A stretch of DNA of 46,626 nt, taken from NCBI GenBank assembly GCA_018817865.1, contig JAHITG010000292.1:1-46626 (forward strand). The letters are read 5' to 3'. The notes beneath the pieces are model-generated. The model worked only from the letters and a program-made list of their open reading frames with translations. It had not been told where the DNA came from and did not search any database. The position numbers were made by a program, and so were the translations under genes. Source of the DNA: Spirochaetota bacterium (lineage in GTDB: Bacteria; Spirochaetota; JAHITG01). Each line of letters opens with the position of its first letter. Positions within the stretch are counted from its first letter, which is position 1. Below, piece by piece: positions 15,009 through 38,692 of the stretch.

Positions 15009-16244
15009 ATGAAAAAGATCAGATTAATTAAAAGAGGATCGTCTATAGCTTTCATCATAAGCGTGCTTATTCTTATCCTGCTGCCTTTTTATATTCTTTT
15101 TGCTGATTATTCATTATTTGTTGAGGTTAGAAATGTCAGTGATAACAACCTTGTCACGAATGTCTCTTTCAATACCAATAATGTTACGGATGATGACAAG
15201 CGGTTCATCACCTCTCCTCAGTATGTTACTGTTCATTATTCCAATGAATCGACCAATGCAGCATGGGGTATCAGGATCTACACTTATAACACGAATTATA
15301 CGGGAACGGCTCCTTATGCCGGATTGATAAGCTGTCCTGTTCCTGACAGCAGGCTTGACCTGTTATGGAAGATCTTTACTTCGGTTCAACCCGGCGGTGT
15401 TCCCTGCTCCAATGATATTGCGTGGGGATATATCAAGGATCGTCGTGATAATGACTGGACCCAGGCCCCTGAAAGTTTTGATCTGATCCGGGGCACGCAG
15501 TTACAGGGAGAATTAGCCTCATATCCGGTTGCCGGAAGGACGGTTGTAAGTCCTGTCCCATTGTATCTCTATTTAGGAGTGAACTGCAGTAATCCTCCAT
15601 CCGGGACTAATAATTATGGAACAACCCTCTATATGGATATCTATCATGTACCGGCTTATATTCCTTCATTTCGAATTACTGAGATCGTTCCTCTGCAGGA
15701 TTTTAATATTAATAAGGATTTTACCCTCGCGATCACCGGTGAAGCCTTTCAGGAGGGAGCTGAAGTAAAATTAAGAAAAAGCGGCCAATCTGATATAAAT
15801 GCAACTGAAGTAGTTGTAACACCGGATAAGATATTAGCCGATTTTGACCTGACAAAAGCTTTTAAAACAGGAGCATGGGACCTTATTGTTAAGAATCCGG
15901 ATAATGAAACCGTGGTTCTGCCGGAGGGATTTTTAATCCGGGGATTTGATATGACCGGATATAAACTGATCCCGGTAAACAATCTTTTTAATCCCGCGCG
16001 CGGAGAGAAGATGTCCGTAAAATGGAGCATTGAAAAGGAAGAGAAGGTAATGCTTGAGATCTATAATGTAAAGGGAGAGATCGTAAAAACATTTTACAAC
16101 AATGAGCCTGTTTTACCCGGTGTATATCAGAATGACTGGTATGGGAATAATAATGGCAATAACCGGGTGGGAAGCGGGATCTATTTTATAAAGATGAGTG
16201 CAGGGGCATTTAATGATATTAAGAAAGTGGTGGTTGTAAAATAG
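15009..16244 (+). CDS. Surface protein with T9SS-type C-terminal sorting domain (411 aa)
   Basis: The track start at 15003 overlaps the upstream stop (ATGA). The ATG at 15009 has better spacing from AAGGA. The C-terminus KMSVKWSIEKEEKVMLEIYNVKGEIVKTFY...GSGIYFIKMSAGAFNDIKKVVVVK matches the Por_Secre_tail/FlgD-Ig-like CTD pattern. Confidence 0.7.
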   Translation: MKKIRLIKRGSSIAFIISVLILILLPFYILFADYSLFVEVRNVSDNNLVTNVSFNTNNVTDDDKRFITSPQYVTVHYSNESTNAAWGIRIYTYNTNYTGTAPYAGLISCPVPDSRLDLLWKIFTSVQPGGVPCSNDIAWGYIKDRRDNDWTQAPESFDLIRGTQLQGELASYPVAGRTVVSPVPLYLYLGVNCSNPPSGTNNYGTTLYMDIYHVPAYIPSFRITEIVPLQDFNINKDFTLAITGEAFQEGAEVKLRKSGQSDINATEVVVTPDKILADFDLTKAFKTGAWDLIVKNPDNETVVLPEGFLIRGFDMTGYKLIPVNNLFNPARGEKMSVKWSIEKEEKVMLEIYNVKGEIVKTFYNNEPVLPGVYQNDWYGNNNGNNRVGSGIYFIKMSAGAFNDIKKVVVVK

Positions 16245-16265
16245 GATCAAGGAGATGATGATGTT

Positions 16266-17573
16266 ATGAGATCAATTATATTTATATTAATATTTTCAAT
16301 ATTAATGAGCCTGTCCGGCAATATGTACGGTGATAATACACGTGTCTCTACAAGAGGAGCAGGGATCGTTATGATGGCTCTGGAACCACGGCCGATGAGC
16401 ATGGGAGGAGCGTTTACCGCTGTGTCTGATGATATCCATGCTCTTGTTTATAATCCGGCCGGGATAGGGCTGATCAGAGATCTTTTAGGATCAATATCCT
16501 ATCAAAAAGGGATCGAAGATATGCATTACGGTTCAGCCTCTTTAGTTTATCCAATAGGAAGACAGAGTGCTTTAGGGCTTAATTTTGGTTTTTTTCATCA
16601 GGGATTTTTTGATCTGTATCATCAGGAAGGAACTATTGAGCGCGGTTCTTTAGGGAACAGCTATAAACTGGGGTTAACCTACGGGATCCTTTTTAAGGAT
16701 AGTGACATTTCATTAGGTGCAACTTTAAAAATGATCAACAGTACATTATATACGTATTCCGCTTCCACCGGTGCTGTTGATCTGGGTCTGTTATATCATC
16801 CGTTATCAGCAGATTCAAAGAAAAACCGGTTTTCGTTTGGAATAGCTGTTTTAAATCTGGGTCCCGGTCTGAAATATATTGAAGAGGAAGACCCATTACC
16901 AACCGCATATAAATTGGGAATAGCCTATGCCTGTCATTTTAAAGCTGGAAAGACTCCTTTTAGACTGCTCTTTGCAAATGATATTATAAAGGATGATCAG
17001 TATGAAGGGCTCGGAGTGAATACAGGCATTGAGTTTAAATACCGTGATATTCTAATGGTCCGTGCGGGATATCAATTCAGGGGAGGGCTGGATCTTGATG
17101 ATGATAACGGATTTAATACGGGAATGGGTATCAATTACAGTGATCTTCAGTTTGATTACAGTTTTAAACTATCAAGCAGTGAATTGAATTCCACTTCTCA
17201 TTGTTTTTCTGTTTCATACAGGTTTTCATCTTCCGGGGAGAGAAGAAATAAAAAAAGTTCGCTCAGCTTAAAAAGATCCCTCGGCGAAGAACCTGAAGTG
17301 GAGGAAAAGAAGGTGGAGGATAAAGTAAAGACCATTAAATATTCCGATATACCCCTGTATAATAAAATAATTCTGGGTGTATCAAAAGGGCCCAGTAATT
17401 CAGGGAATAATTATAAGATACAGTATTCTACAAAAGAGACTCCGGACCAGAGCCCTGATTCAGAGGATTATAAAGGGAATGTGTTCGATGAGACCAGGGT
17501 GAAATGGGTTCGCTGGGTAGAGAAGAATAAAAACACTAATAAACCGGTATACTATAAAATTAGTATTGAATGA
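16266..17573 (+). CDS. PorV/PorQ-family outer-membrane beta-barrel with ~110-aa charged C-terminal extension
   Basis: The family signature is RPMSMGGAFTAVSDDIHALVYNPAGIGLI. Alternating beta-strand segments follow, ending in FSVSYRF. The tail SSGERRNKKSS...YYKISIE is of unknown type. Confidence 0.7.
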   Translation: MRSIIFILIFSILMSLSGNMYGDNTRVSTRGAGIVMMALEPRPMSMGGAFTAVSDDIHALVYNPAGIGLIRDLLGSISYQKGIEDMHYGSASLVYPIGRQSALGLNFGFFHQGFFDLYHQEGTIERGSLGNSYKLGLTYGILFKDSDISLGATLKMINSTLYTYSASTGAVDLGLLYHPLSADSKKNRFSFGIAVLNLGPGLKYIEEEDPLPTAYKLGIAYACHFKAGKTPFRLLFANDIIKDDQYEGLGVNTGIEFKYRDILMVRAGYQFRGGLDLDDDNGFNTGMGINYSDLQFDYSFKLSSSELNSTSHCFSVSYRFSSSGERRNKKSSLSLKRSLGEEPEVEEKKVEDKVKTIKYSDIPLYNKIILGVSKGPSNSGNNYKIQYSTKETPDQSPDSEDYKGNVFDETRVKWVRWVEKNKNTNKPVYYKISIE

Positions 17574-17623
17574 GGATCCTTTTAAACCGATAAATAATAT
17601 GAAAGAAAGTAAGGAAGATAATT

Positions 17624-20236
17624 ATGGGATTTAAAAAGAGAATAATAATTCCTGTTCTGATCATGTTTGTGTTTCTCTTGCCATACCTGACAAAGGGACA
17701 GTCAGGGGATGTAAGCCTTCATATCGATATTATCAGTTATGACGTACAGAATGCGGAGTTTTCTCCCATGAGTAAGCCCGCAGAGCTTTCCTTAAAGAAT
17801 TATTATTTTAGCAGCTTTTCTAATAAAGGGATCTCCTTTATCGATTATTCGAAATGGGGGTATTCCACGAGTACGGCTGAAGAGTCTCTGAACCGGATGA
17901 AGGCTGATTATGTAAATTATGTAGCACTGAATTTTATGGTTTATCAGGATACAGGAACCTCTACTGTCATATACAGGGATGGGACTAAAACACCGGATGA
18001 CCGTGCTTTAACCAATATTATTAATGATATTCATTCAAGGAACATGAAGGTCTTTTTAAAGGTCAATGTGGATGCTCAGAACGGAGATTCACGCACTGCT
18101 TTCAATCCAACATCAAAACCACAATGGTTCTCCAGTTACAAGACGATCATTACCCAGTATGCACGGCTGGCGCAGCAGAATAATGTAGAGATGTTTTCAG
18201 CAGGTGTAGAACTGAAGACATTATCCGGAAGTTCTTATCAGGCAAACTGGAATGATATCATCTCTTCTATTAGAAATATTTATACTTATGGAGATGTTAT
18301 CTATTGCGCAAACTGGAATGAGTATCAAAATGTCAGTTTCTGGGACTCTCTCGATTATATCGGGATCGATGCATATTTTCCTTTGAATGAATTACAGGAT
18401 CCCGCTGTTGCACAGATCAGTAATGGCTGGTATGCTTATAATGGTACCTGGGGGGCTCATAACTGGGTCAATGAGATAGATACCTTCAGGCAGAGTAAGG
18501 TTAAGGATGTACTTTTTACAGAGATCGGCTACAGGAGTGCGGACTATGCAGCCAAAGAGCCGTGGTCGGAGAAGACGGTGATCAACCTCCCTCTTCAGGA
18601 GAGATGCTATTCCGCTGCCATGAAGGTCTGGAAGCCGATCACCTGGTTAAAAGGGCTCTTCTGGTGGGACTGGCCCATTAATGTGCAGTCCGGAGGAGGG
18701 GATAACCATCACTTTGAATATGATACGGTGAACTGGGCATATGATACGTATACTACCGATATGGGCTGTACCAATGTAGAACGCACCACCGAGCGGGCCT
18801 ATCAGGGTTTTGGTTCTTTAAAGATGGATTATCATCTGGTATATGATCATGCAAACTACAGCAAGGGAGATGCCTACTGGGAGATCGGTGATCAGTATCT
18901 GCGGGGAAAAAGATTGAGCGTGTATGTATATTGTCCCGCAGGGTCCATGGGAAGCGCATCCCATTATAACGGATTGACCCTCTTTGCCAAGGATGCGGAC
19001 TGGAATTATTATCAGGGTGCTTGGAATAATATATATATTACCAATCAGTGGTTTAAACTGACCTGGGACCTTCCTGATGAAGCCTGGGCATCGCATGTTC
19101 GTCAGGTAGGATTAAAATTTTCTACGCCCGGGACCGGCTCTGCGCTTGAGAACAATTATGACGGGCCCATCTATATGGATGATTTTATCTGGGAGGATAT
19201 TGTTCCGCCGGGAGATAATTACGGTTTTGAATCCCAGCCCATTGCATGGTATAATGCGGGTAATGCCTGTTCCAGTGTCCAGCAGTCTGCCGCGGTTGCT
19301 TACAGCGGTTCCTATTCTCTGCAGATGAATTATGATCTCAAGTGCAGTGACAATACCGGATTTGCGGAATGGGATATGGGAAGCAGCGGGACCAATCTGT
19401 ACGGTAAAGAAGTTAATATCTGGGTCTATTGTCCAGCCGGGTCCGGCGGAACAGCATCAGCTAAAAACGGAGTAACGATCTATATGAAGGATGCAGGTTT
19501 TAACTGGATCGAGAGTGAATGGAATAATATTTACGGCAGTGAAGATTCCTGGATGAATATCAGATGGACCGTTACATCCAATGTGGCCAGTAATGCCAGG
19601 TATATCGGGATCAAAGTGGGAACTGCCGGAAGCTGTACCAGTTCAAATGAGTATACAGGGCCGATCTATATTGATGATCTGATATGGAGCAATGCTTCAG
19701 CACCTCCTGCAACGCCTGAAGGATATTATGACTGGGAAGACGGGACACTCCAGGGGTGGTATCCGGACAACTATATCAACAACAGGGCGTTTTATGATCC
19801 TCCTGCTCCGATCAATACAAATGAAAGAGCTCAGGCCGGGACGCAGTCCATGAAATGTCACTTCCGGCTGATAAAGAATAATGTCAACTATGACAGCGGG
19901 TACATGTGGGTAGATTGTGCCCGAACCAACCTGACAGGGAAGACCGTCTCTGTTTACATCTGGGCACCGGCTTCTCTGCAGTGGAAGGGCGGGATACAGC
20001 TGGCTTTCAAAGACAATACCTGGACCTACTGCGACACTGACTGGCGGAATATCGCTTCGGTTGGCAGCTGGGTTCGGTACAGTGCTGCTCTGCCGGCTGA
20101 TATCAACTGGAATGACGGGATCGACCTGACCAAGATAGAACATATGGGTATAAAACTTGGCTCCGGCGGCGGCATGAGCTCCGGTCAGGAGATCACAGGA
20201 TATATTTATATTGATGAGTTTGATTGTGACTATTAA
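17624..20236 (+). CDS. Secreted TIM-barrel glycoside-hydrolase-like domain followed by three CBM-like beta-sandwich repeats (870 aa); no T9SS CTD
   Basis: The N-terminal half has VALNFMVYQD, MKVFLKVNVD, WFSSYKTIITQYARLAQQNNVEMFSAGVELKT and LFTEIGYRS, which are clan GH-A-like acid/base and nucleophile contexts. Three ~150-aa repeats follow, each ending in GPIYMDDFIW / GPIYIDDLIW / GYIYIDEFDC. Confidence 0.6.
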   Translation: MGFKKRIIIPVLIMFVFLLPYLTKGQSGDVSLHIDIISYDVQNAEFSPMSKPAELSLKNYYFSSFSNKGISFIDYSKWGYSTSTAEESLNRMKADYVNYVALNFMVYQDTGTSTVIYRDGTKTPDDRALTNIINDIHSRNMKVFLKVNVDAQNGDSRTAFNPTSKPQWFSSYKTIITQYARLAQQNNVEMFSAGVELKTLSGSSYQANWNDIISSIRNIYTYGDVIYCANWNEYQNVSFWDSLDYIGIDAYFPLNELQDPAVAQISNGWYAYNGTWGAHNWVNEIDTFRQSKVKDVLFTEIGYRSADYAAKEPWSEKTVINLPLQERCYSAAMKVWKPITWLKGLFWWDWPINVQSGGGDNHHFEYDTVNWAYDTYTTDMGCTNVERTTERAYQGFGSLKMDYHLVYDHANYSKGDAYWEIGDQYLRGKRLSVYVYCPAGSMGSASHYNGLTLFAKDADWNYYQGAWNNIYITNQWFKLTWDLPDEAWASHVRQVGLKFSTPGTGSALENNYDGPIYMDDFIWEDIVPPGDNYGFESQPIAWYNAGNACSSVQQSAAVAYSGSYSLQMNYDLKCSDNTGFAEWDMGSSGTNLYGKEVNIWVYCPAGSGGTASAKNGVTIYMKDAGFNWIESEWNNIYGSEDSWMNIRWTVTSNVASNARYIGIKVGTAGSCTSSNEYTGPIYIDDLIWSNASAPPATPEGYYDWEDGTLQGWYPDNYINNRAFYDPPAPINTNERAQAGTQSMKCHFRLIKNNVNYDSGYMWVDCARTNLTGKTVSVYIWAPASLQWKGGIQLAFKDNTWTYCDTDWRNIASVGSWVRYSAALPADINWNDGIDLTKIEHMGIKLGSGGGMSSGQEITGYIYIDEFDCDY

Positions 20237-20327
20237 ATTTTTTATTAAACTGCAGTAGCTGTTTCTTCTGTTCGGCTTCATTATTTGTGAAGGTGATTCC
20301 GTAAAGTGCCGAAAAGATTAATGTATC

Positions 20328-21983
20328 ATGAGAAGGATCTTATTCATTATAATAATTATTTTTTTAGCTTCAATTTCTTTATCTGCTGAGCTGTATACGG
20401 TCTGGACACAGCGTATAAATAGTCCGGGGTCCGAAGATGACAGCGGATACGGGATCGATGTGGATGATCTCGGTAATGCGTATGTGACCGGAAGAAAGCA
20501 TAACGGGCTGAATTTTGATTATTTTACGATAAAATATGACCCGGATGGAAATACGGTCTGGTCACAGGTTTATGATAACGGCCAGAGAGATGATGGCTAT
20601 TATGCCCGGATACGGTCATCCTATCTTTATATTACAGGGGCAAGTGATAATGGCGCTGATTTTGATTTTTGTACTGTGGTATATGACCTGAACGGGAACA
20701 GCACATTTACACAGAGGTTTAACAGTGGCGCGGCTGATTTCGGCCATGCTGTAACAGCGGATGATTCCGGTGCTATTTATGTAGCCGGTCCGAGTAATAA
20801 CTGGAACTATTTTTTAATTAAATATAACAGTGATGGAAGTACGAACTGGACCCGGTCCGGACCTGCAGGAAGGCCGTTCGGAATTGTATATGATAATACC
20901 GGATATGTATATGTGACAGGGTTCAGGGACGTCGGCCCTAATGTGGATTATTACACTGTGAAATACAGTACCAATGGAACAACAATATGGACACAGCAGT
21001 ATGACAGCCAGGCCGCTACTGATGATGCAGCGCATGATATTGTACTGGACAGCATTGGAAATGTTTATATAACAGGGTATAAGCTGAACAGTGATTTTTA
21101 TACTATAAAACTTGACTCTCTCGGGAATACGGTCTGGACTCAGGGATTTGACGGGGGAGGGATCGATTACGGCAGAGGCATTGATATCGGTCCGTTAGGA
21201 TATGTTTATGTCGGGGGATTCAAGCACAATGGTCTTAATTATGATTATTTTATTATAAAATATGATCAGAATGGCAATACGATCTGGACTCAAGGATATA
21301 ACGGCGGGAGTGATGACAGGATTGAAAGAATTGCGGTGGATAATAAAGGATTTGTTTATGCTACAGGATATAAAGATAATGGCGCGGATGATGATTTTTT
21401 TACTATTAAATATCTTCAGCCTCCTTATCCCACAGTACCCTCTTCTCTTTCTGCCTCTTTCATCTCGAAAAATGCTGCAACGATCAGCTGGCAGGATATG
21501 ACGATCAATGAAGAAGGATTCAAGATATACAGAAGCAGTGACAATCTTATCTTTAACCTGATAGGAACAGTTACAGCAGGCAGTACTTCTTTTCCTGATA
21601 ATACATTGGAAGAGGGATCATACTGGTACAGGATTGGAGCAACCAACAGGGCCGGCGAGATTACATCAATAACTTATAAATATACAGCCGGAGAGGCCTT
21701 TATCTCCACCACTCGTACAGGTGTTTATCCCAATTATTTTCAGATCGGACATGACCATGAAATAAAGATAGTCATAGCTGAGGCAGGATATGCCCGGATC
21801 AGGATATACAATATTGCAGATTCTCTTGTTAAGGATTATCCGGAACAATATTATCAGGCGGGAGCATATTCAGTATGGGATGGAAAAGGAGGAGTCGGAC
21901 AGGCTCTGGGCGCAGGTCTCTATTTTGTCGTGATAAAAGGGGAAAATGTAAATACCATATGTAAAGTGATCCTGAAAAGGTAG
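20328..21983 (+). CDS. SBBP-type beta-propeller repeat protein + FN3-like domain + T9SS-type CTD
   Basis: It has repeats such as DYFTIKYDPDGNTVWSQVYD, DYYTVKYSTNGTTIWTQQYD and DYFIIKYDQNGNTIWTQGYN. The FN3-like segment is ATISWQDMTINEEGFKIYRS. The CTD reads ARIRIYNIADSLVKDY...GAGLYFVVIKGENVNTICKVILKR. Confidence 0.8.
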   Translation: MRRILFIIIIIFLASISLSAELYTVWTQRINSPGSEDDSGYGIDVDDLGNAYVTGRKHNGLNFDYFTIKYDPDGNTVWSQVYDNGQRDDGYYARIRSSYLYITGASDNGADFDFCTVVYDLNGNSTFTQRFNSGAADFGHAVTADDSGAIYVAGPSNNWNYFLIKYNSDGSTNWTRSGPAGRPFGIVYDNTGYVYVTGFRDVGPNVDYYTVKYSTNGTTIWTQQYDSQAATDDAAHDIVLDSIGNVYITGYKLNSDFYTIKLDSLGNTVWTQGFDGGGIDYGRGIDIGPLGYVYVGGFKHNGLNYDYFIIKYDQNGNTIWTQGYNGGSDDRIERIAVDNKGFVYATGYKDNGADDDFFTIKYLQPPYPTVPSSLSASFISKNAATISWQDMTINEEGFKIYRSSDNLIFNLIGTVTAGSTSFPDNTLEEGSYWYRIGATNRAGEITSITYKYTAGEAFISTTRTGVYPNYFQIGHDHEIKIVIAEAGYARIRIYNIADSLVKDYPEQYYQAGAYSVWDGKGGVGQALGAGLYFVVIKGENVNTICKVILKR

Positions 21984-22089
21984 AATAATAAAAAAAAAGA
22001 GAAAGAAAAGTTGAAATATAATAATTTTGAGGTATATTATATATTAGAAAAAGATCAAATGACCTGATTTTTTAAACCGGGGGTGACAA

Positions 22090-22569
22090 ATGAAAGTTTT
22101 AAAAGGCATACTTTTGTGTCTGATCTTCCTTTTAACAGAGTTAACTATTACGGCTGTATATGCCAAGAAGGTAGCCGTACTTCAGTACTATAAGGGAGAT
22201 GTATTGATCGAGCGCCATGTTATGAAGGGGAAATGGATGAAACCGAGGCTGAATGTAAAACTGGATGATAAGGACCAGATAAAGCTGGTTAAAGGTGGAA
22301 TAGCGAAACTCAAATTCATAGACGGGTCCATTGTAGAAATTAAAGAGAGTAAAATCTATCAAGTCGGTGATGTTAAAAATCTGGCAACGAGTAAGCGGAC
22401 CAAAGGAAAATCCGTCCTTTCAAAATTGAAATCACTGAAGAGTAAGCTTGGAAAAGGCGGAGGAGCAGACAAAGGAGGCCCGACAGCTGTTGCCGGTGTC
22501 CGCGGTGCTGATGTCTCTGAGAAATCCAAATCACCGGTTAAACCTTCTGAATTAGTCTGGGAAGAGTGA
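22090..22569 (+). CDS. Small secreted FecR-domain-like protein
   Basis: It has a signal peptide. KGDVLIERHV...LVKGGIAKLKFIDGSIVEIKESKIYQVG and TAVAGVRGADV resemble FecR-type beta-sandwich proteins. The assignment is weak. Confidence 0.4.
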   Translation: MKVLKGILLCLIFLLTELTITAVYAKKVAVLQYYKGDVLIERHVMKGKWMKPRLNVKLDDKDQIKLVKGGIAKLKFIDGSIVEIKESKIYQVGDVKNLATSKRTKGKSVLSKLKSLKSKLGKGGGADKGGPTAVAGVRGADVSEKSKSPVKPSELVWEE

Positions 22570-22783
22570 TAGGGAGAGGCCCGCACTTTATTCGTACTTG
22601 CATTTTATATTAGACAGTATTGTATTCTTATAGTTCAATTTAAATTATTTAATATTTATATTGCTTGTTTATGATAAAAAAAAGCCATATATCTTCAAAA
22701 TATTTTATTAAATATTCTATCCGCTTTTTACGGCGATCATTTTTCCCATATTTTATTTTTAATTCAATTGTGTGAGGTCTATC

Positions 22784-29092: not shown

Positions 29093-29108
29093 AGGAGGAT
29101 CAGGAATT

Positions 29109-31863: not shown

Positions 31864-32772
31864 ATGTTCAGAAGATGGATGTTTCAAAAAGACGGCCAGA
31901 CCCTGGGTCTTGTAGCCCTCATTATTCTGCTTTTAGGTGTGATCGCTTTTTTTATCTATAACATAGGTGATTTTTATATAAAAGCGGTAAAGGAACAGAG
32001 TGCCGTGGATGCGGCCATGATCTCCGGTGCTTCGGTACAGGCGGATTATTTGAACATGATCGTACGAAATAATAGAAATACTATACGAGATTATTATATA
32101 CTTATCTGGGCCTGCCGGATATGCGAATTGATTTGTATTCCGGTATTTCCATGCTGCGGGAGGATCTGTTATGTTACTACTCCCCTTATGCATATTATAG
32201 AAAAAAGGTTTATGCTTAAACAGATGACATTGGCGCAAATGGCAGGTATCAAAGCGAGGAGCGAGGCATTAAGTGCTTATAGGAGATCGGGCGGTAAAGG
32301 GAATTTGGAAATATTGCTTTCCTCCGACCCGTATCCTTCAGGGGATGACAGGATGCTTTTCCCCAACACATTGAGACTCAGTATGATCTATTCAAAGATG
32401 CCCAAGACCAGGTTTAGTCAAAATAAAAAGACTTTCTGCGGTTTAGGGGAGAAAAAGAGGAACTCTATGTATGACTGGAAGGGAATGATAAGCTGGATGA
32501 GGGTCCAGGGGAATTACCAGGGTTTTTATGATAAAGCCGGGCCTTTTATCAAGACGATCCCGGAAAGTACTCATTTTAAATTTAAACCCGTATCAAGCTG
32601 GTTTTCTAAAACTCAGAAGATCAGTGTACATTCAGCTGCCCGGCCCTACGGCGGGCATGTTCATGATAAATATTCGTATGGCTTAGGCTGGCCCATCCTG
32701 GTTGGCGGCGGTGAAGATACATTTACGGCAAAATTGGTTCCAACAAAATCATTGTTATACAGGTGGTGGTAA
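31864..32772 (+). CDS. TadG-like pilus (pseudopilin) protein with Cys-rich insert
   Basis: The RBS is AAGGAG. The N-terminus KDGQTLGLVALIILLLGVIAFFIYNIGDFYIKAVKEQSAVDAAMISGAS fits the Tad/TadG N-terminal pattern (G-x4-hydrophobic helix...Q.A.DAA.L.GA). It contains the cluster CRICELICIPVFPCCGRIC. Confidence 0.6.
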   Translation: MFRRWMFQKDGQTLGLVALIILLLGVIAFFIYNIGDFYIKAVKEQSAVDAAMISGASVQADYLNMIVRNNRNTIRDYYILIWACRICELICIPVFPCCGRICYVTTPLMHIIEKRFMLKQMTLAQMAGIKARSEALSAYRRSGGKGNLEILLSSDPYPSGDDRMLFPNTLRLSMIYSKMPKTRFSQNKKTFCGLGEKKRNSMYDWKGMISWMRVQGNYQGFYDKAGPFIKTIPESTHFKFKPVSSWFSKTQKISVHSAARPYGGHVHDKYSYGLGWPILVGGGEDTFTAKLVPTKSLLYRWW

Positions 32773-32773
32773 G

Positions 32774-33211
32774 ATGAAACTATCATTTAAAAAATTCATT
32801 GATTTCATCAAGGAGAAGAAAGGCCAGGCATTTACAGAGCTGATCATACTTATCACCCTGATCTTTATGACCGCGATCGTTGCTACGATCCATTTAGGGC
32901 TTTTCCAGTTGAGCCGGACAAGGATACAGATGGCTAATTTCTATCTGGGCCATACATCAGCAACCGCAAAAAATCCCGGGGATGTAGGAACAAAGACAAA
33001 AGTAATGCTTAAAAAAGGGGCTCCTTCTGTTGTTGAAGACAGTACATGGTTTGAATCAGTTACTCCCACAGTATCCGGCGGTGACGCAAAGACAGCACAG
33101 ATCAAAACGGAGTTCCGATTAAATTCATCTATCATGCAAAAAGTTGTTGGAAGTGACATTATGCCTTTGAACTCATATAAACTCTATATAAAAGGACCCA
33201 AGTATAAATGA
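32774..33211 (+). CDS. TadE-like pseudopilin (145 aa)
   Basis: The ATG at 32774 lies 1 nt after the upstream stop, so I reject the track start at 32702. The N-terminus is MKLSFKKFIDFIKEKKGQAFTELIILITLIFMTAIVATI (G-x3-E + hydrophobic helix). Confidence 0.5.
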   Translation: MKLSFKKFIDFIKEKKGQAFTELIILITLIFMTAIVATIHLGLFQLSRTRIQMANFYLGHTSATAKNPGDVGTKTKVMLKKGAPSVVEDSTWFESVTPTVSGGDAKTAQIKTEFRLNSSIMQKVVGSDIMPLNSYKLYIKGPKYK

Positions 33212-33996
33212 TTAAATTAAATAAGATAAAGACATTATGCGTTTTGTTTTTATTGATCGTCTGCATTTTTATGCATCAGAACATATCTGGACAATTAAAT
33301 GACGCCCTTCAGGAAGTTCTCTTCTATAAAGGGGATATTGTTGTTGATAATGTGGATCAATGGGAATCCAATAATATCCATTTTACTATGGTTGGCTATT
33401 TCCTGAAAAAGGAGAGGGAGATCACTGTTAAAAAGATACAGGAGTATTATAAGCATTCTTTTAAGAGATTTGGTTACAAAGTTTACAGAAAGAAGGATCA
33501 GAAACTGGCCGAGGGAATGCTTCAGGAAATGTATTTAATGAATGATAAACACATTTTTGGTATTACTATCTATGATCTAAAGGATATTGAAGACTACTAT
33601 ATAACCTTACAGGTATCTGAAAAGGATGTCATGCGTAATCCCGGGATGTTCTTATTAAATAAGAAAAAAGATAATCCCGGATTTGATTATAAGGATATTC
33701 CCCGTTTTAAGAACAGTATTAGGTTCATGTCCTCCCGGTCAATATCCGAGGTTGGAAAAACAGAGCAGCAGATCATTTATCATACACTATCTGAAATTGA
33801 GGGTATTACGGATTTTTATAAAGATATTATGATCAAAGAAGACTGGAAAATGAAGCAGTCCTTTGAGACTCCCGAGTGTAATATGCTTCATTATAAAAAA
33901 AGTAAAAATAATGAGGTAACATGTGATATTTTTATCATGAAGAGTAAGGACATGAAAGAGAATGCAATTATTATAAACAGGAGTTCATATGATTAA
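33208..33996 (+). CDS. Secreted/anchored hypothetical protein embedded in the Tad pilin set (262 aa)
   Basis: It overlaps the upstream gene by 4 nt (ATGA). It has an N-terminal hydrophobic helix (LCVLFLLIVCIFM) and no motif I recognise. Confidence 0.5.
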   Translation: MIKLNKIKTLCVLFLLIVCIFMHQNISGQLNDALQEVLFYKGDIVVDNVDQWESNNIHFTMVGYFLKKEREITVKKIQEYYKHSFKRFGYKVYRKKDQKLAEGMLQEMYLMNDKHIFGITIYDLKDIEDYYITLQVSEKDVMRNPGMFLLNKKKDNPGFDYKDIPRFKNSIRFMSSRSISEVGKTEQQIIYHTLSEIEGITDFYKDIMIKEDWKMKQSFETPECNMLHYKKSKNNEVTCDIFIMKSKDMKENAIIINRSSYD

Positions 33997-34168
33997 GCTT
34001 TTAAAAAAGATCAATGGACAGGCCCTTGTAGAATATGCTCTGCTGAGTGTTTTTATTACCCTTGCTGTACTCGGTGTTTACATGGCTGCAGCAGCTGCCT
34101 ATAAGAATGTTCTGAATGAAATTATTGAAGGAATTGAAAAAGCACATTATCTTGAGATGTTCATGTAG
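33989..34168 (+). CDS. flp: Flp-family type IVb pilin (59 aa), missing from the ORF track
   Basis: My own translation gives MIKLLKKINGQALVEYALLSVFITLAVLGVYMAAAAAYKNVLNEIIEGIEKAHYLEMFM. It carries the Flp motif G/QALVEY followed by a hydrophobic helix. AGGAG lies at 33979-33983. The start overlaps the upstream stop within ATGATTAA, and the TAG stop is at 34166-34168. Confidence 0.8.
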   Translation: MIKLLKKINGQALVEYALLSVFITLAVLGVYMAAAAAYKNVLNEIIEGIEKAHYLEMFM

Positions 34169-34177
34169 GAGAAGGTC

Positions 34178-34690
34178 TTGAAAATACGGCAGTTTATTAA
34201 ACAAACCGATGGCCAGTCATTAAGTGAAACTTTAGTGGCTTTACTGGTGGTCATCTATATTGTTCTTGGACTATTTCAGTTTTCCCTGTTCATTACCGGG
34301 TTCCTTTCAACGAATTATGCGGCGTTCAGGGCGGGCCGGGCTGTTCTGGTCTCTTATAATAATGAAAGAAGCTACGGTCAGTCTGCCGGTTCAGCCCTCA
34401 TGGATGCAAGAAAGGTGGTGGGTAATTTATATCTCTTTTCCTCTATTGCCGGATCAATGCCATATCAGGTTAAGTTATACAAGTTTGACAGCAGCGATGA
34501 TTCATATCTGGGGGATCCATACCAGTCCAGTGAATCCCTCCCTGCTGATAGCGATGTCTGGGTAGAAGTGACCGGTAGAATGCGGTATGTCATGCCTTAT
34601 GCCAGAAAAATATTCGGACTTTTCGGCTGGAAGACCATTAAAGCCTATTATCTGATCCATACACCCAATCCCGGCCGGAATAACCCATAG
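34178..34690 (+). CDS. TadE-like pseudopilin (170 aa, TTG start)
   Basis: The RBS is TAGGAGAAGG. The N-terminus TDGQSLSETLVALLVVIYIVLGLFQFSLF...NYAAFRAGRAV matches the TadE pattern (G-x3-E-hydrophobic ... aAR.GAR). Confidence 0.6.
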   Translation: MKIRQFIKQTDGQSLSETLVALLVVIYIVLGLFQFSLFITGFLSTNYAAFRAGRAVLVSYNNERSYGQSAGSALMDARKVVGNLYLFSSIAGSMPYQVKLYKFDSSDDSYLGDPYQSSESLPADSDVWVEVTGRMRYVMPYARKIFGLFGWKTIKAYYLIHTPNPGRNNP

Positions 34691-34694: not shown

Positions 34695-36653
34695 TCATTT
34701 ATTTATTGCTTCAATTTTTTTCAGAATGTACATGGATGTTTTATCCAGCAGTAAAAAGAGGTTTTTATCTACACTTCCCTGGATCTGATCGGTGACCAGG
34801 ATCTCTCCGCTGTCGATATTGACCAGGCTGATATTTATTCTTAAACCACCTTTACTGTAAATATAGCTTCCTGTAATCAGGGTGTCGATATTCCAGAATT
34901 CCTTTAAAAGTTTTACCAGATCACTTTTTTTAAAGTCGGAATTTTTTACGGAGAGTGCTCCTATTCTATTCTTAATGATCCTTCGGTCTATTACCTTTAA
35001 GTTCTTCTGCCTGGCCAGGTGCGTAGCTATGGATTCGGGAATGGTGTTCGAAAGGTATCCGAAATCTTTGATCCGGGATGTGTTTTCAAAATTGAAGAGG
35101 GCGATCCGTCTGATCTTCTGATCAGCTGTTTCATCGGATCTGATCAGCTTCTGCATCTTTAATTCCTGTTTTGCTTTTTCCAGCTCCAGCCGGGTCTTTA
35201 CTTCTATGTTCTCCGGATCGATCCGGAGTGCTTCTCCCCATTCTTTGATGGCTTCTGAATGCCCTTCTTTGATGCTGGCATCCAGCCCGCTGAAATAGTG
35301 ATCCTCAAATTTTTCTTTTTCTTCTTCCTTCCATCGTTTCAGGAGGATCTGGTACTTGTATCCATCCAGGCCTTTCTCTTTTTTATACAGTTTGTAAGAG
35401 ATCCTGTCTTTTTGTACATCCTTTTCCATTAAATACTTGCATATCAGTAAGGCCTGTTCTTTTAATTCTTCCAGGTTCTGCTTCCTGTTTGTGATCGGGG
35501 TCATGGCAATGACATTTTTATAATCCTCATCTTTTATCAGTTTCGCGATCTGATCCAGTATTTTCGTTGTTTCTGTATCAAGCATAGATCCGTCTTTACC
35601 GGTTAATTCAGACTTGTTTATCTTGAAAGATATCTCATCCCGCGTTTCTCTGATCACGATATTTCTGTTTTTGTATTGCTCGATCTTCTCCTCACTATAT
35701 GTACGTACTGGAGCCAAGAGCAGGGTCATCTGCAGAAAATGGGATGTCCCTTCCTCAAGCAGAGAGATCCCGTAATCAAGCCTGATCCCGGCTTTACCTA
35801 AAAAGCGGGTTTGCAGAAGATCATCTTTTCCGATCCCAATTCCGAAATTAATTCTGTCCTCATCTCTGCCGAAGAGGTAGTATCCGCCTCTTAAAAAGAG
35901 AACGTCCAGGTAGCCCAGCTCCAGTCCTGCTGAAATATATTGGCTATTGTATTTGGAAAGGAAGGTATAGGTGCTTCCCAGTTTTGCTTCAATTGTATTA
36001 AAAATTTTCAGGAATTTATAGACAAACCCGGTATAGACCGAAACAGGATATGTATATGCTCTCTGGTCGAATCCGGTCTTAATGATATTCAGATTTTGTA
36101 CTCCCAGACCCATGTTCAAGTTTCTTTTTTCATTGATGTTGATCCCTTTTACTGTTACGGGTATGATCCCCGAGAGACCTGCACCCAGCCAGTTTCCGGT
36201 ATATCCTCCCAGATCTGTGGACATATATTTTAGATTGGCTCCCAGAAGGATATTTTTAAATATCTCCCTGCCATATCCCAGATTGAGCATTATCTCAGAA
36301 CTGGAAACATCCCCCAGGATATTTCCGCTTGGATCATAATTTTTTATTGCATCCAGGGAGCCGAAGATGATCGTACCGCCGATCACACCCAGTTTTGTAT
36401 CAGCGGCACAGCCTATCCTCTGGATGGTGAGCGTATCCTGCCATCGTAAATAATTAAAGCTGATAGTATGACCATTTAGACCGGCCAGGGAAGCGGGAAA
36501 AATGTCAATATTATTTTGATCACTCCTCTCCACAAGCAGTGATTCGGCTGTTCCATATAGTCGGCTGTTGTAATGGGGGAAATCCAGTAAAATAGCTGCT
36601 TGAATGAGCGCTGTCTGGCATAAAAAACAGATGATAATGATGATCTTTTTCAT
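34695..36653 (-). CDS. Fusion protein: PorV/PorQ-family barrel + OmpA-like segment + TPR-like segment + C-terminal LpoB/CsgG/TolB-N-like alpha/beta domain (652 aa)
   Basis: The barrel region is paralogous to 29109-31481: FPASLAGLNGHTISF...GYGREIFKNILLGANLKYMSTDLGG versus NPGGLAFIKGYEISF...SFGREFFNMVGIGANVKYIKSSMG. The middle segment is ISFKINKSELTGKDGSMLD...ILDQIAKLIKD. The C-terminus is IALFNFENTSRIKDFGYLSNTIPESIATHL...TLITGSYIYSKGGLRINISLVNIDSGEIL. Confidence 0.65.
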   Translation of the reverse strand: MKKIIIIICFLCQTALIQAAILLDFPHYNSRLYGTAESLLVERSDQNNIDIFPASLAGLNGHTISFNYLRWQDTLTIQRIGCAADTKLGVIGGTIIFGSLDAIKNYDPSGNILGDVSSSEIMLNLGYGREIFKNILLGANLKYMSTDLGGYTGNWLGAGLSGIIPVTVKGININEKRNLNMGLGVQNLNIIKTGFDQRAYTYPVSVYTGFVYKFLKIFNTIEAKLGSTYTFLSKYNSQYISAGLELGYLDVLFLRGGYYLFGRDEDRINFGIGIGKDDLLQTRFLGKAGIRLDYGISLLEEGTSHFLQMTLLLAPVRTYSEEKIEQYKNRNIVIRETRDEISFKINKSELTGKDGSMLDTETTKILDQIAKLIKDEDYKNVIAMTPITNRKQNLEELKEQALLICKYLMEKDVQKDRISYKLYKKEKGLDGYKYQILLKRWKEEEKEKFEDHYFSGLDASIKEGHSEAIKEWGEALRIDPENIEVKTRLELEKAKQELKMQKLIRSDETADQKIRRIALFNFENTSRIKDFGYLSNTIPESIATHLARQKNLKVIDRRIIKNRIGALSVKNSDFKKSDLVKLLKEFWNIDTLITGSYIYSKGGLRINISLVNIDSGEILVTDQIQGSVDKNLFLLLDKTSMYILKKIEAINK

Positions 36654-38692
36654 TTTATTAAATAGAACATGGCCCTCTTATTATTGATCCTGACGCTATA
36701 CTGTCCGGGGGGAAGAAATCTAAGGTTCTGTACATCATATTCATAAGCACCGGTGCTTAAGTCAGCACCATTGATCTCCTTTACAATATCTCCCCTCAGG
36801 TTGCAGATCCGGATATCCGTATCCTGCTTTCCGTTCCTGTATACGATGATCATTCTGGTGACTTCATCTGGTTTTACCATGGTAGGATAGACAGCTATAT
36901 CCTCTGCTCCTTTTAGAACCGTATAAAGTGCCTGATTGGTTTTACTCATATTATAGTATCGGTCCCTTGCGTAATAGGAAAGGGTGTATTCATATCCGGC
37001 AGAGAGAGGGATATCCAATGTTGCCGTTCCTGAAAGAGTCCTGTCAGCAACATTATTGCGAAAGACCGTAACAAATATAATGGCTGTTGTATCGACAACG
37101 GTCATACTCTGATCTTGAAAAACCGAAAATCGAAGGATGATATCACCAAAGTATTTCCCGGGTAATTTGTCCGGGGCAACCGAAGGGGAGATATATTCCT
37201 GAGGTTTGATAAAGCCGGACTCCAGCCACCCCATGTCCGGATCAAAACTGAAAAAAGCATCCGTGATCCCGGGAATGTTGGTGCCGCTGTCGATCACCGG
37301 GCTCTGTCCGAAGATGATGCGGTAATCACCCGTTGTATCTAAAAACGGGTTTTCAGTGATATTATGACTGCCCCAGAGGACCGGGCCGTTGGTCAGGTCT
37401 GTTCCGTTCCCGTAAAAGTCATTGTAATCTGCATATACGCTTCCCATGCTGGCATTTGAGATGCCGAAAAATGTATTGGAGAGAATAATGTTATTGAAAA
37501 GGAAACCGCTTGTATCATTTTTCCAGATTAGGCCGTTTGGTGAAAGAGAGATCGTATTATTGATCACTGCTAAATTTGTTACACTGCTTTCACAATAGAT
37601 TCCCGAGCGGTTGTTGCTAATGATAAGATTTCTATATATTATATTACTGTTCCCATGCTGTGCATAAATGCCGTCATACTGATTTTGGATGATCTGATTG
37701 TATTTTATAATATTATTTGTGGCTTGAAATAACCTGATGCCATAATCCTGTTGATTACCGGTACAGCGGATTATGTTCGATACGATCGATGCGGAATACA
37801 TGCCGTCCTCAATATATATTCCGCCCCAGTAACTGTCACCTATTAGTGAGTTGCCTCTGATCCGGAGGCCTCTTGTGCCTGAAACACGAATCCCGGTACG
37901 GCTGTTGTACAACAGCTGATTATTTTCCACCAGGCCGTTGTCAGAGCCAATATCGATACCATCCAGGCCTTTCATTATTGTATTATTCATAATATGGGCA
38001 GACTGGCCTCCGCTTATGATCGATTGAGATTTCATGTTGGATATGAAATTATTAATGATGTAATTATTAGTTGAACTATCGAAAAATATACTTACTAAAA
38101 GATCATAAAAAGAATTTGAGGCTATTATATTATTATCACTGAATGCCATGCGGATTCCGTAACTATTGGTTGATGGCCCAAAGAGATTGGAGGCAATGAA
38201 ATTATTATCTGAGTCTAAACCTTGAATTAAAACACAATAGAAATTGGAAAAAAGCGTGTTTTTAACAATAATGTTATAAGCAGAATTATTATCTATATAG
38301 ATTCCTTCATTTATTGCATTTTTGATGATAAACCCTTTGATCCTGATATAACTTTTACCATCCAGGTGAAAACATTCTGTTGATCCTGTTCCGTCCACTG
38401 TGGCCTGCCTTTCCTCGTATGCCGTAAAAGTGATATAATTCCCGGGATTTCCACTGTTGGGTATTTTAATCTGTTCGTTATAAATGCCGTTGGAAACAAT
38501 GACAGTGTCCCCGGCAAAGGCATTGGTGGCGGCATGTCCGATCGTCTGCCAGGCCTGGGCCCAGTTGGTCCCGTCAGCTATGTTAGAGCCGTTCGTCTTT
38601 ACATAAAAGAGTGTGGCATAGGATGGGACTGTTTCAACAACAGCGAGTAAAATGATAAAGGGAAAAAACAGAATAGATTTGAGCCGGGACAT
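36650..38692 (-). CDS. Right-handed parallel beta-helix (pectate-lyase-fold/NosD-like) surface protein with T9SS-type CTD (680 aa)
   Basis: It has many N/I/G-rich approximately 22-aa turns (NNIIASNSF, NNYIINNFIS, NIIYRNLIISNN, and others). The CTD reads RMIIVYRNGKQDTDIRICNLRGDIVKEI...PGQYSVRINNKRAMFYLIK. It overlaps the downstream barrel gene by 4 nt. Confidence 0.75.
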   Translation of the reverse strand: MSRLKSILFFPFIILLAVVETVPSYATLFYVKTNGSNIADGTNWAQAWQTIGHAATNAFAGDTVIVSNGIYNEQIKIPNSGNPGNYITFTAYEERQATVDGTGSTECFHLDGKSYIRIKGFIIKNAINEGIYIDNNSAYNIIVKNTLFSNFYCVLIQGLDSDNNFIASNLFGPSTNSYGIRMAFSDNNIIASNSFYDLLVSIFFDSSTNNYIINNFISNMKSQSIISGGQSAHIMNNTIMKGLDGIDIGSDNGLVENNQLLYNSRTGIRVSGTRGLRIRGNSLIGDSYWGGIYIEDGMYSASIVSNIIRCTGNQQDYGIRLFQATNNIIKYNQIIQNQYDGIYAQHGNSNIIYRNLIISNNRSGIYCESSVTNLAVINNTISLSPNGLIWKNDTSGFLFNNIILSNTFFGISNASMGSVYADYNDFYGNGTDLTNGPVLWGSHNITENPFLDTTGDYRIIFGQSPVIDSGTNIPGITDAFFSFDPDMGWLESGFIKPQEYISPSVAPDKLPGKYFGDIILRFSVFQDQSMTVVDTTAIIFVTVFRNNVADRTLSGTATLDIPLSAGYEYTLSYYARDRYYNMSKTNQALYTVLKGAEDIAVYPTMVKPDEVTRMIIVYRNGKQDTDIRICNLRGDIVKEINGADLSTGAYEYDVQNLRFLPPGQYSVRINNKRAMFYLIK

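Follow-up and report, generated by a model that had tools for sequence, protein, structure and literature searches.

PorZ and PorU are the two type IX secretion system (T9SS) proteins that retain their C-terminal domain (CTD), seated on PorQ and PorV, respectively. Prevailing T9SS models assign a single general carrier, PorV, to cargo with type A CTDs and private PorP/SprF carriers to cargo with type B CTDs. Slam (type XI) systems likewise have a TPR-bearing barrel of 14 strands, its gene beside that of the surface protein it serves, but the Slam barrel comes from an unrelated family (DUF560), has its TPR at the N-terminus, and serves lipoprotein cargos without a CTD; its likeness to the barrel–TPR genes next to cargo described here may be taken as analogy only. 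Within the T9SS, cognate pairs are already known: PorQ–PorZ, PorV–PorU, and cargos with type B CTDs encoded beside PorP/SprF-like barrels (PMC10202324, PMC9143113, PMC10994853). The same papers provide precedent for cognate carriers and for peptidoglycan (PG)-tethered anchors, and in the PorP system the PG tether runs through the OmpA_C/TPR protein PorE (PMC9143113, PMC10994853). A review has further suggested that "cognate PorV-like beta-barrels" shield the CTD (PMC10202324).

Two other groups of barrels are relevant. NCBIfam curates a second PorV-like protein, "PorV2" (NF052325), and a T9SS-dependent cargo, the "T9SS-dependent M6-like inactivated metalloprotease" (NF052323); we found no paper on this pair in the literature. 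Spirochaete barrels of the same superfamily, namely the FadL-like OMPs of Treponema (UPF0164) and a PorV/PorQ-family OMP of Brachyspira, have been read as importers of lipids or hydrophobic substrates, with a CTD partner unreported (bioRxiv 10.1101/2025.01.03.631275).

Here we describe a third situation, seen in one locus and in a survey of 84 related loci: a large and diversified PorV/PorQ branch whose genes stand one-to-one behind genes with type-A-like CTDs, with several such barrels per genome, and with cell-wall-binding or TPR modules as frequent fusion partners. This two-gene unit recurs across many bacterial phyla. Most likely it keeps each cargo on the cell surface, which extends the known "cognate carrier" idea in type IX secretion. 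A sequence-only reading of the locus had set such pairs against a Bacteroidota model in which one generic PorV serves all cargo. That premise leaves out PorQ–PorZ, PorV–PorU, and type B cargo with PorP/SprF-like barrels; because cognate pairs were already known, the private-pair idea is an extension and not a break.

Three cargo–barrel pairs in one window

The sequence available to us consisted of the window (the whole 46.6-kb stretch of DNA that was analyzed) and the ±10 kb flanks of related loci. The window's MAG carries the label Spirochaetes. ORF positions bear out the earlier claim of three cargo genes, each followed by a barrel gene in the same direction. These pairs are probably co-transcribed units, with signals of co-transcription at their junctions: cargo 1 and barrel 1 are separated by a 21-nt gap containing an AAGGAG RBS, cargo 2 and barrel 2 by a 16-nt gap containing an AGGAGG RBS, and cargo 3 runs into barrel 3 through an ATGA start/stop overlap. 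Each paired cargo has a signal peptide at its N-terminus. Pairwise identity between the three barrels is 23%–30%. Of a motif block proposed to unite them, barrels 2 and 3 alone carry the exact form; barrel 1 has NPAGIG and GATLKM, and barrel 3 has FPASLA.

Pair 1 belongs to a five-gene operon on the plus strand. Three secreted proteins of 187, 306, and 272 aa (12538–15006), without a family match in Pfam or NCBIfam, precede cargo 1 (413 aa; 15003/15009–16244), which is composed of a signal peptide, an Ig/TIG-like passenger, and a C-terminal CTD (about 15951–16241). Barrel 1 (435 aa; 16266–17573) has a PorV/PorQ-family barrel at residues about 23–320, then a 110-aa C-terminal tail. The operon is conserved: the three secreted proteins are homologous and syntenic in loci L001 and L002, orthologs of cargo 1 occupy the identical operon position in L001 (48% identity) and L002, and pair 1 is inherited as a unit in both. 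The gene separating barrel 1 from cargo 4 encodes a GH113-family glycoside hydrolase (17624–20236, plus strand; GH113 171 bits) that lacks a CTD and has repeated C-terminal binding modules, which are shared with 858-aa and 864-aa neighbors in L001. Cargo 4 (551 aa; 20328–21983, plus strand) combines SBBP beta-propeller repeats (59 bits), fn3, and a CTD (21681–21980). Located two genes downstream from barrel 1 on the same strand, it lacks a barrel alongside, as the earlier reading had it.

Pair 2 starts with the largest cargo (2106 aa; 22772/22784–29092, plus strand), which carries five MAM/choice-of-anchor-J and Ig modules (InhA-like_MAM 84 bits; choice_anch_J also matched), an FG-GAP propeller (FG-GAP_3 119 bits), fn3, and a CTD (about 28793–29089). 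Barrel 2 (790 aa; 29109–31481, plus strand) has its PorV-family barrel at residues about 30–313.

Pair 3 is on the minus strand. Cargo 3 (680 aa; 36650–38692) has a right-handed beta-helix passenger of the NosD/pectate-lyase-like kind (Beta_helix and NosD, about 71 bits each) and a divergent CTD (36653–36946); barrel 3 (652 aa; 34695–36653) has a PorV-like barrel at 35712–36470. This pair is inherited as a unit in L084, L085, L086, and L168, in each of which the barrel gene has a beta-helix gene immediately upstream; in L084–L086, our CTD profile found the CTD of the beta-helix protein.

CTDs and barrels of the window

The CTD tails of cargos 1–4 can be aligned with one another and appear, from their sequences, to be homologous Ig-like CTDs. 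Curated CTD models match the full-length cargos only weakly, and cargo 3 not at all. Full-length cargo 1 scored 21.5 against TIGR04183 (cutoff 23), 20.7 bits against the type A CTD model PF18962 (Por_Secre_tail; cutoff 27), and 25.9 bits against FlgD_ig; its tail alone reached 28.4 bits with Por_Secre_tail, which exceeds the cutoff of 27, and 29.3 bits with FlgD_ig. The only CTD match of full-length cargos 2 and 4 was FlgD_ig, under the cutoff (23 bits at residues 2023–2093 and 19.4 bits, respectively). Curated cutoffs are missed by three of the window's four CTDs. A CTD profile iterated on relatives and run in our own hmmsearch gave domain E values of 2e-23, 7e-20, and 3e-11 for cargos 1, 2, and 3, and cargo 4 scored 3.7e-40 with the seed profile, to which cargo 4 itself contributed. 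Por_Secre_tail was matched by 43 of 77 related tails at E < 1e-3; matches to CHU_C, a type B CTD model alongside TIGR04131, were weaker and fewer (28 of 77). Searched against the PDB, a profile of the 77 CTDs had the PorZ CTD as its best match (5m11 residues 666–758; E 1e-11), with the PorU CTD (6za2 residues 1053–1155) at 5e-11. Both outranked the cleaved cargo CTDs 8glk_D, 8glj_D, and 5hfs; the profile additionally matched FlgD.

The earlier assignment of the barrels to the PorV/PorQ family (Pfam PF19572), and not to FadL, is supported by NCBIfam scores, a PDB profile search, and Foldseek on two AlphaFold models. Barrels 1 and 2 scored 162.4 and 142.3 bits against NF033709 PorV_fam (cutoff 90 bits), and barrel 3, at 66.5 bits (E 3e-18), falls under this cutoff and is therefore a divergent family member. 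A barrel profile built from 41 sequences matched F. johnsoniae PorV in the PDB over its full length (6h3i_F; E 5e-42), compared with 4.5e-5 for TodX. PorV 8gl6_F was the top Foldseek match of the AlphaFold models of barrel 2 (pLDDT 86.7; E 7.6e-10 vs. 1.4e-7 for FadL) and barrel 3 (pLDDT 85.2; 3.2e-12 vs. 1.5e-8). None of the three matched PorP_SprF (PF11751), and only barrel 2 matched FadL/OmpP1/TodX (PF03349), with 17.6 bits over 55 residues (cutoff 29.7 bits). Against the equivalog models of PorV (NF033710, cutoff 250 bits), PorQ (NF033711, 220), and PorV2 (NF052325, 325), all scores were under the cutoff: 88, 107, and 39 bits for barrel 1; 68, 63, and 38 bits for barrel 2; 19 bits, 37 bits, and no match for barrel 3. 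On these scores, none of the three is an ortholog of PorV or PorQ.

Another possibility is that the barrels take up hydrophobic or other small substrates as FadL-type channels, sitting in a nutrient-acquisition operon with secreted enzymes, the CTD being irrelevant. PorV has a FadL fold; the next Foldseek matches are FadL, TodX, and TbuX; barrel 2 has the weak Toluene_X match and scores 42.5 bits against the Treponema FadL-like family UPF0164 (cutoff 21.4); the Brachyspira protein has been interpreted in this way (bioRxiv 10.1101/2025.01.03.631275); and the locus has GH113 and beta-helix enzymes. We nevertheless consider uptake very unlikely. The barrel profile matches PorV far more strongly than TodX. 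What is conserved in the neighbor is a CTD and not a kind of enzyme, with inactive proteases and adhesin-like MAM/FG-GAP/fn3 giants among the passengers. The adjacency is tight and directional, and uptake would not account for the periplasmic tethers (OmpA or LpoB-like).

Recurrence of the pair in related loci

Cargo–barrel adjacency, proposed from a single locus, is strongly conserved among relatives. Across the 84 loci, a CTD gene lies directly upstream of 62 of 91 testable barrels (median gap 36 nt), and 67 of the 84 CTD genes touch a barrel; as a check on chance, only 17 of these 84 genes, in 1.31 Mb of related loci, are not beside one. About a third of the related barrels have no detectable CTD neighbor. 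The association tracks the barrel and not the fused module, with an upstream CTD gene found for six of 10 barrel+TGase fusions versus none of 71 module-only genes. The upstream passengers are mutually unrelated, forming 44 BLAST clusters (proteases, fn3, FG-GAP, beta-helix), and the common element is therefore the CTD. In a mirror-tree comparison, distances between barrels track those between CTDs (Spearman 0.39, or 0.30 for non-homologous passengers; Mantel p = 0.001), a correlation that is confounded by species phylogeny. The window's MAG has at least two further pairs on another contig (L084), for a total of at least five in this one genome. Together with equivalog scores below the PorV and PorQ cutoffs and the inheritance of pairs 1 and 3 as units, this number argues that the barrels are dedicated and not generic, as had been suggested.

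The same data bear on whether the pairs are simply the canonical attachment-complex genes, that is, porU–porV and porZ–porQ orthologs of an ordinary T9SS. porU and porV are neighbors in model Bacteroidota, and the CTD profile is nearest to the PorZ and PorU CTDs. The equivalog scores contradict such orthology (best 88, 107, and 39 bits against cutoffs of 250, 220, and 325), Peptidase_C25/PorU and PorZ models found no match among the window cargos, and one genome has at least five pairs with unrelated passengers, making this reading extremely unlikely in our judgment. Upstream proteins of 1050–1250 aa in relatives were considered as PorU candidates and dropped, being M6-like, M36/FTP-like, or without a family. 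In Krumholzibacteriota, pairs at L013 and other loci place an M6i-like cargo (231 bits) upstream of a PorV_fam barrel; the window barrels reach only 38–39 bits against the PorV2 model (cutoff 325).

By MAG label, pairs were found for 29 of 40 testable barrels outside the FCB group (Elusimicrobiota, Nitrospirota, FCPU426, Firestonebacteria) and for 14 of 24 with FCB labels. Elusimicrobiota, Nitrospirota, and FCPU426 make up most of the carriers, and we found no published T9SS report for these three or for Spirochaetes. We found none of the T9SS core genes (sprA, gldKLMN, porU) on searching the window, the Pfam lists for six related loci, and ten annotated recurrent neighbor families; the cargo–barrel pair is the only recurrent unit in the 84 loci. 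The pair might be an autonomous export and anchor module, in which the barrel, perhaps with BAM, moves and holds its neighbor without a SprA/GldKLMN T9SS; in function it would amount to a "split autotransporter" or a Slam-like system. The similar frequency of pairs outside and within FCB labels, the recurrence of the pair alone, the Spirochaetes label of the MAG, and several best NCBIfam matches to Leptospira families all speak for it, and the order passenger–CTD–barrel with overlapping or nearly overlapping ORFs resembles an autotransporter cut in two. We think this unlikely: a plugged 14-strand barrel is too narrow for folded passengers of 400–2100 aa, and bona fide Bacteroidota, Ignavibacteria, and Chlorobiales loci (L070, L082, L044, L049, L055), in which a T9SS is expected, show this barrel family in the same arrangement. 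Moreover, the absence of T9SS genes applies to the window and the ±10 kb flanks, not genome-wide, and MAG taxon labels are unreliable (e.g., "Clostridia" and "Methanoperedens"). Rather unlikely, too, is a broader version in which the pair is a self-sufficient and widespread means of surface display, without T9SS translocon or motor, in diderms of the Spirochaetota, Elusimicrobiota, and Nitrospirota type, the Bacteroidota T9SS attachment complex (PorQ–PorZ, PorV–PorU) being a specialized descendant of this older two-gene module.

A proposed route and anchor for each cargo

Our preferred reading is that each barrel is probably the cognate carrier or anchor of its own cargo, by a T9SS-type route. 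The cargo, whose C-terminal end would be a CTD with an Ig-like beta-sandwich of T9SS type-A/FlgD-Ig character, would be exported by Sec through its N-terminal signal peptide, and the next gene would encode a 14-strand PorV/PorQ-family outer-membrane barrel dedicated to that cargo as carrier and anchor. Passage across the outer membrane would use a T9SS translocon of the SprA type whose genes lie elsewhere in the genome; we infer this step as well as the physical binding of CTD to barrel and the retention of the CTD. The CTD would dock on the extracellular face of the barrel and stay there, as for PorZ on PorQ, PorU on PorV, and SprB on SprF. For barrels 2 and 3, the C-terminal modules would be periplasmic and would attach the complex either to peptidoglycan, through the OmpA-like one, or to partners in the periplasm, through the others (TPR, LpoB/FlgO-like, transglutaminase-like), in parallel with the PorP–PorE complex; some barrels may in this way tether their cargo to the cell wall. 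A stationary anchor seems likelier than a shuttle, given the likeness of the CTDs to those of PorZ and PorU and the presence of OmpA-like and TPR modules in the periplasm.

The arrangement resembles PorQ–PorZ and PorV–PorU of P. gingivalis, in which a surface protein is held, through the type-A-like CTD that it retains, by a 14-strand barrel of the PorV/PorQ family; here, however, barrels and cargos lack orthology to PorV/PorQ and PorU/PorZ, pairs are many per genome and strictly adjacent, and the barrels often have periplasmic modules. With the type B systems SprB–SprF and PG1035–PorP–PorE it shares private pairs encoded side by side and, as proposed here, a barrel that is both carrier and anchor. 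Unlike in those systems, the barrels belong to NF033709 PorV_fam and not to PF11751 PorP_SprF, and the CTDs fit type A (Por_Secre_tail, FlgD_ig) better than CHU_C. Barrel 3 resembles a PorP–PorE arrangement in a single chain, the tether being fused to the barrel, whereas PorE is a separate lipoprotein.

If the pairs bind as inferred, the genomic rule of a CTD gene followed by a PorV_fam gene predicts non-covalently anchored surface proteins and their barrels, and dozens of naturally occurring pairs, cognate and non-cognate, become available for decoding CTD–carrier specificity. A further question would then be whether Elusimicrobiota, Nitrospirota, and the Spirochaetes-labeled lineage have an overlooked T9SS or the pair without one.

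The barrel family repeatedly carries periplasmic modules at the C-terminus (OmpA-like, TPR, LpoB-like, transglutaminase-like), and OmpA, AMIN, and TPR extensions are recurrent among its members in other phyla. The module compositions previously proposed for barrels 2 and 3 are supported by the AlphaFold models. The C-terminal part of barrel 2, predicted to be periplasmic, has an Ig-like and a transglutaminase-like (cysteine-protease-like) module at residues about 321–632 and TPR at about 653–789, consistent with its AlphaFold model and a GDCDD...H...E motif. Its own sequence did not match Transglut_core (PF01841), which is matched by six of 11 homologous modules (best E 1e-5); the alignment shows no variation at C534, H560, and E596, and the only PDB sequence match was a weak one to 4u65_E (E 0.2). 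The fused architecture is conserved in P0219 (63% identity) and about 20 more representatives. Barrel 3 continues, on the minus strand, into an OmpA-like domain (35334–35657), a helical TPR-like hairpin (35139–35327), and an LpoB/FlgO-like domain (34701–35111; FlgO 37 bits), a composition seen in its AlphaFold model and in Foldseek matches to the OmpA-like PA0833 periplasmic domain (6jfw; TMt 0.66), LpoB (4q6l), and GNA1162 (4hrv). Barrel 3 scores 18.5 bits against the OmpA-like peptidoglycan-binding domain PF00691, the domain present in PorE, which is under the cutoff of 27.2; the barrel 3 relatives P0214 and P0215 have precomputed PF00691 annotation. Finally, the 110-aa tail of barrel 1 is kept in P0002 and P0003 and missing from P0004.

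Cargo and barrel genes of the window

The contig (46.6 kb; labeled "MAG: Spirochaetes bacterium" at NCBI) encodes four secreted proteins with a T9SS-like CTD tail (cargos 1–4), three of which are directly followed by a PorV/PorQ-family gene (barrels 1–3). All genes over 12538–31481 are on the + strand: three secreted proteins without a Pfam or NCBIfam family (187, 306, and 272 aa; 12538–15006) directly 5' of cargo 1 (15003–16244), barrel 1 (16266–17573), a GH113 hydrolase, cargo 4 (20328–21983), a small protein, cargo 2 (2106 aa; 22772–29092), and barrel 2 (29109–31481). On the − strand, cargo 3 (38692–36650) is followed at its 3' side by barrel 3 (36653–34695). The junctions are as the sequence-only reading described them, namely a 21-nt gap with AAGGAG, a 16-nt gap with AGGAGG, and an ATGA stop/start overlap. 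A signal-peptide-like hydrophobic stretch was present at the N terminus of all seven proteins.

Curated CTD models matched the full-length cargos below threshold only, with no match for cargo 3. The four cargo tails align in a common pattern (N.F.P, I.I.N..G..VK, W.G, G.Y), and we used them to seed an HMM that was iterated across every ORF in the related loci. The iterated profile matched cargos 1, 2, and 3 with domain E-values of 2e-23, 7e-20, and 3e-11, and the seed profile matched cargo 4, itself among the seed sequences, at 3.7e-40. When 77 CTD tails were scanned in isolation against Pfam (E < 1e-3), 43 matched Por_Secre_tail, 39 FlgD_ig, and 28 CHU_C. The best solved match to the profile was the PorZ CTD (5m11 residues 666–758; E 1e-11), along with the PorU CTD (6za2 residues 1053–1155; E 5e-11), followed by FlgD, the Flavobacterium johnsoniae cargo CTDs on PorV (8glk_D, 8glj_D), and the RgpB CTD. 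PorZ and PorU are the two proteins of the T9SS from which the CTD is not cleaved off; they remain bound to PorQ and PorV (PMC10202324). Cargos 1–3 are likely anchored through a retained CTD.

The barrels are of PorV/PorQ type and not FadL, in line with their initial assignment. Against the PorV/PorQ family model NF033709 (NCBIfam; cutoff 90 bits), barrels 1 and 2 scored 162.4 and 142.3 bits, and barrel 3 scored 66.5 bits (E 3e-18), below the cutoff; none of the three reached the NCBIfam equivalog cutoffs for PorV, PorQ, or "PorV2", and their Pfam PorV matches were sub-threshold to borderline. On the FadL side, barrel 2 was above threshold for Pfam UPF0164 (a Treponema FadL-like family) and gave only 17.6 bits with Toluene_X, and a PorV/PorQ-family outer membrane protein of Brachyspira has been interpreted as FadL-like (bioRxiv 10.1101/2025.01.03.631275). 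A profile of 41 barrel domains run against the PDB matched F. johnsoniae PorV (6h3i_F) over its full length at E 5e-42, versus a partial match at E 4.5e-5 for TodX, the best of the FadL family. The top Foldseek match of the AlphaFold models of barrel 3 (pLDDT 85.2) and barrel 2 (pLDDT 86.7) was PorV of the substrate-bound translocon (8gl6_F; 3.2e-12 and 7.6e-10, respectively), with FadL ranking behind it (∼1e-8 to 1e-7). The motif block originally quoted for all three barrels is exact in barrels 2 and 3 and not in barrel 1.

Pairing in related loci

The genome scan used a 10-sequence barrel alignment and a single genome for each GTDB species; it yielded 80 loci, to which we added those of close homologs before searching the called ORFs with the barrel and CTD profiles. 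The survey contained 98 barrel genes, 91 of them with ≥600 nt upstream. A same-strand ORF ending in a CTD lay directly upstream of 62 of these 91 testable barrels (median distance 36 nt), and five barrels had a CTD gene directly downstream. There were 84 CTD ORFs in the 1.31 Mb surveyed, of which 67 touch a barrel. The three private cargo–barrel pairs proposed from the sequence were thus confirmed as an observation and generalized to relatives, and it is close to certain that the two genes of each pair are partners. A mirror-tree test of barrel versus CTD was also positive, although only suggestive because phylogeny confounds it.

The upstream passengers fell into 44 unrelated BLAST clusters, including M6-like inactive protease, FTP/M36-like, subtilase, fn3 array, CarboxypepD_reg, and FG-GAP proteins. 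We suspected canonical porU–porV pairs where 1050–1250-aa proteins precede barrels in Elusimicrobiota, Krumholzibacteriota, and Bacteroidota; these proteins had no Peptidase_C25, PorU, or PorZ-equivalog match, ruling out PorU, and were M6-like, FTP/M36-like, or without a family. No third gene family recurred with the pair: the most frequent neighbor family occurred in at most eight of 86 loci, and the ten most recurrent were housekeeping genes or regulators (e.g., TonB receptor, AsnS, LpxH, sigma factor, LacI).

Judged by record titles, which call for caution owing to probable mislabeling, 29 of 40 testable barrels in non-FCB MAGs (Elusimicrobiota, Nitrospirota, FCPU426, Firestonebacteria) were paired, as were 14 of the 24 in MAGs of the FCB group (Bacteroidota, Ignavibacteria, and Chlorobiales among them). 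MAGs labeled "Clostridia" and "Methanoperedens" (loci L004, L062, L066, L068) also hold PorV-family barrels with CTD neighbors; these labels almost certainly reflect binning or labeling errors. At locus L085 (1–7511, − strand), a 537-aa PorV-family barrel gene lies 5' of a giant (>3356 aa) Invasin_D3/Big_1 protein, and gene order within a pair can therefore be reversed. The barrel-then-cargo order was observed at five more loci (L060, L067, L070, L080, L086).

The surroundings of pair 1 form a five-gene operon (proteins of ∼190, 300, and 250 aa, the CTD protein, and the barrel) that is homologous and syntenic in two other contigs (L001 and L002). For its three family-less secreted proteins (L001 1784–4166; L002 402–3337), which always come before cargo 1 and barrel 1, possible roles are a fiber, an Ig protein resembling a chaperone, or a surface-layer component. 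In barrel 1, the 110-aa tail (17256–17570, + strand) has a short KWVRWV...K motif stretch in common with the C terminus of a 1160-aa PQQ/beta-helix protein of L002 (9668–13150; 35% identity across 46 aa, E 5e-5).

The barrel 2 architecture, in which the barrel is fused to an Ig-like, transglutaminase-like (TGase-like), and TPR module, is kept in protein P0219 (63% identity) and ∼20 further representatives of 50% clusters. A metagenome scan for such fusions was run with the family alignment, a single-protein query having returned nothing. Among the metagenome loci, a CTD gene preceded six of 10 testable barrel–TGase fusions versus none of 71 module-only genes; the CTD neighbor thus goes with the barrel, which provides a useful internal control.

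The barrel 3 family is small (seven clusters), and all its named members come from "Spirochaetes bacterium" MAGs. Wherever upstream sequence exists (L084, L085, L086, L168), a beta-helix protein directly precedes the barrel-3-type gene, and the CTD profile confirmed its tail as a CTD in L084–L086. The locus tags (KKH98_04915 and KKH98_08995) place L084 in the same MAG as the window. A further pair on L084, in which a barrel of 316 aa follows an Ig-rich CTD protein of 1341 aa, brings this genome to at least five pairs. Pairs of the beta-helix/barrel-3 type adjoin genes for an ECF sigma factor and for a FecR/PQQ-propeller protein at L084 12140–14626, L086 11844–14573, and L168 7706–12293, with a TonB-dependent receptor added at L168, an arrangement that resembles cell-surface signaling. 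Genes of these three kinds are absent next to pair 3 in the window.

C-terminal modules of the barrels

The AlphaFold model of barrel 3 comprises the barrel (residues 62–314), an OmpA-like alpha/beta domain (residues 333–440; Foldseek 6jfw, TMt 0.66), a helical hairpin, and an LpoB/GNA1162/FlgO-like domain (residues 515–651; 4q6l and 4hrv, TMt 0.69; Pfam FlgO 37 bits). That of barrel 2 shows the barrel, an Ig-like sandwich, an alpha/beta core in which C534, H560, and E596 are invariant, and four TPR pairs. Relatives of this core matched Transglut_core, and the TGase-like module profile had a sole match among PDB sequences, 4u65_E at E 0.2. Other family members carry strong OmpA (55–62 bits), AMIN, TPR, or fn3 extensions. 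From the fold, we infer that the modules of barrels 2 and 3 are periplasmic, because a barrel with an even number of strands has both its ends on the periplasmic side.

The 460-aa barrel 2 module (30066–31478, + strand; related proteins P0225–P0368) is a very widespread unit, found in >1300 50%-identity clusters at E ≤ 1e-30 with NHL-repeat, TPR, or other N termini. Its best NCBIfam match is the N terminus of the anti-phage protein ProA (63 bits).

Relation to the T9SS, and other genes of the window

In the published T9SS model, a cognate carrier barrel recognizes the substrate at the translocon and the two leave together; type A cargo uses PorV as its carrier and type B cargo a PorP/SprF-like protein, on which it remains anchored, with PorE sometimes tying the complex to peptidoglycan (PMC10994853, PMC9143113). 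The window pairs fit this cognate carrier model. They differ in that each type-A-like cargo would have a carrier from the PorV/PorQ family rather than from PorP/SprF, and in that the proposed peptidoglycan or TPR tether forms one chain with the barrel, unlike PorE. We favor, with moderate confidence, the view that they are cognate carrier/anchor pairs. The sequence-only interpretation of dedicated shuttle or anchor barrels is partly supported.

Alternatively, the pairs may work without a T9SS. Core T9SS genes were found neither in the window nor in six related loci from this lineage nor among the recurrent neighbors, and we found no published report of a T9SS in Elusimicrobiota or Spirochaetota. 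We regard this alternative as rather unlikely. A search of the literature, including that on "FlgD Ig-like" domains and the T9SS, returned no description of a pairing between PorV-family barrels and cargo; NCBIfam nevertheless lists a "PorV2" model and one for a "T9SS-dependent M6-like inactivated metalloprotease." Cognate carrier/anchor pairs remain our preferred reading.

Elsewhere in the window, carB (38889–42119, − strand) has its closest named relatives in Dehalococcoidia/Chloroflexota MAGs, at 80%–82% identity, with a local GC of 0.47 versus ∼0.40 nearby. Horizontal transfer could account for this, as could an allele that many lineages share, making carB uninformative for placing the MAG. 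The four small genes between barrels 2 and 3 (31864–34690, + strand) have TadG/TadE-like N termini and weak Pfam Tad and TadE matches, and look like Flp/Tad pseudopilin-type proteins. Finally, a 1191-aa protein (5404–8979, + strand) combines N-terminal TPRs and ∼900 residues of Lys/Glu-rich coiled coil with a C-terminal polysaccharide deacetylase domain (88 bits).
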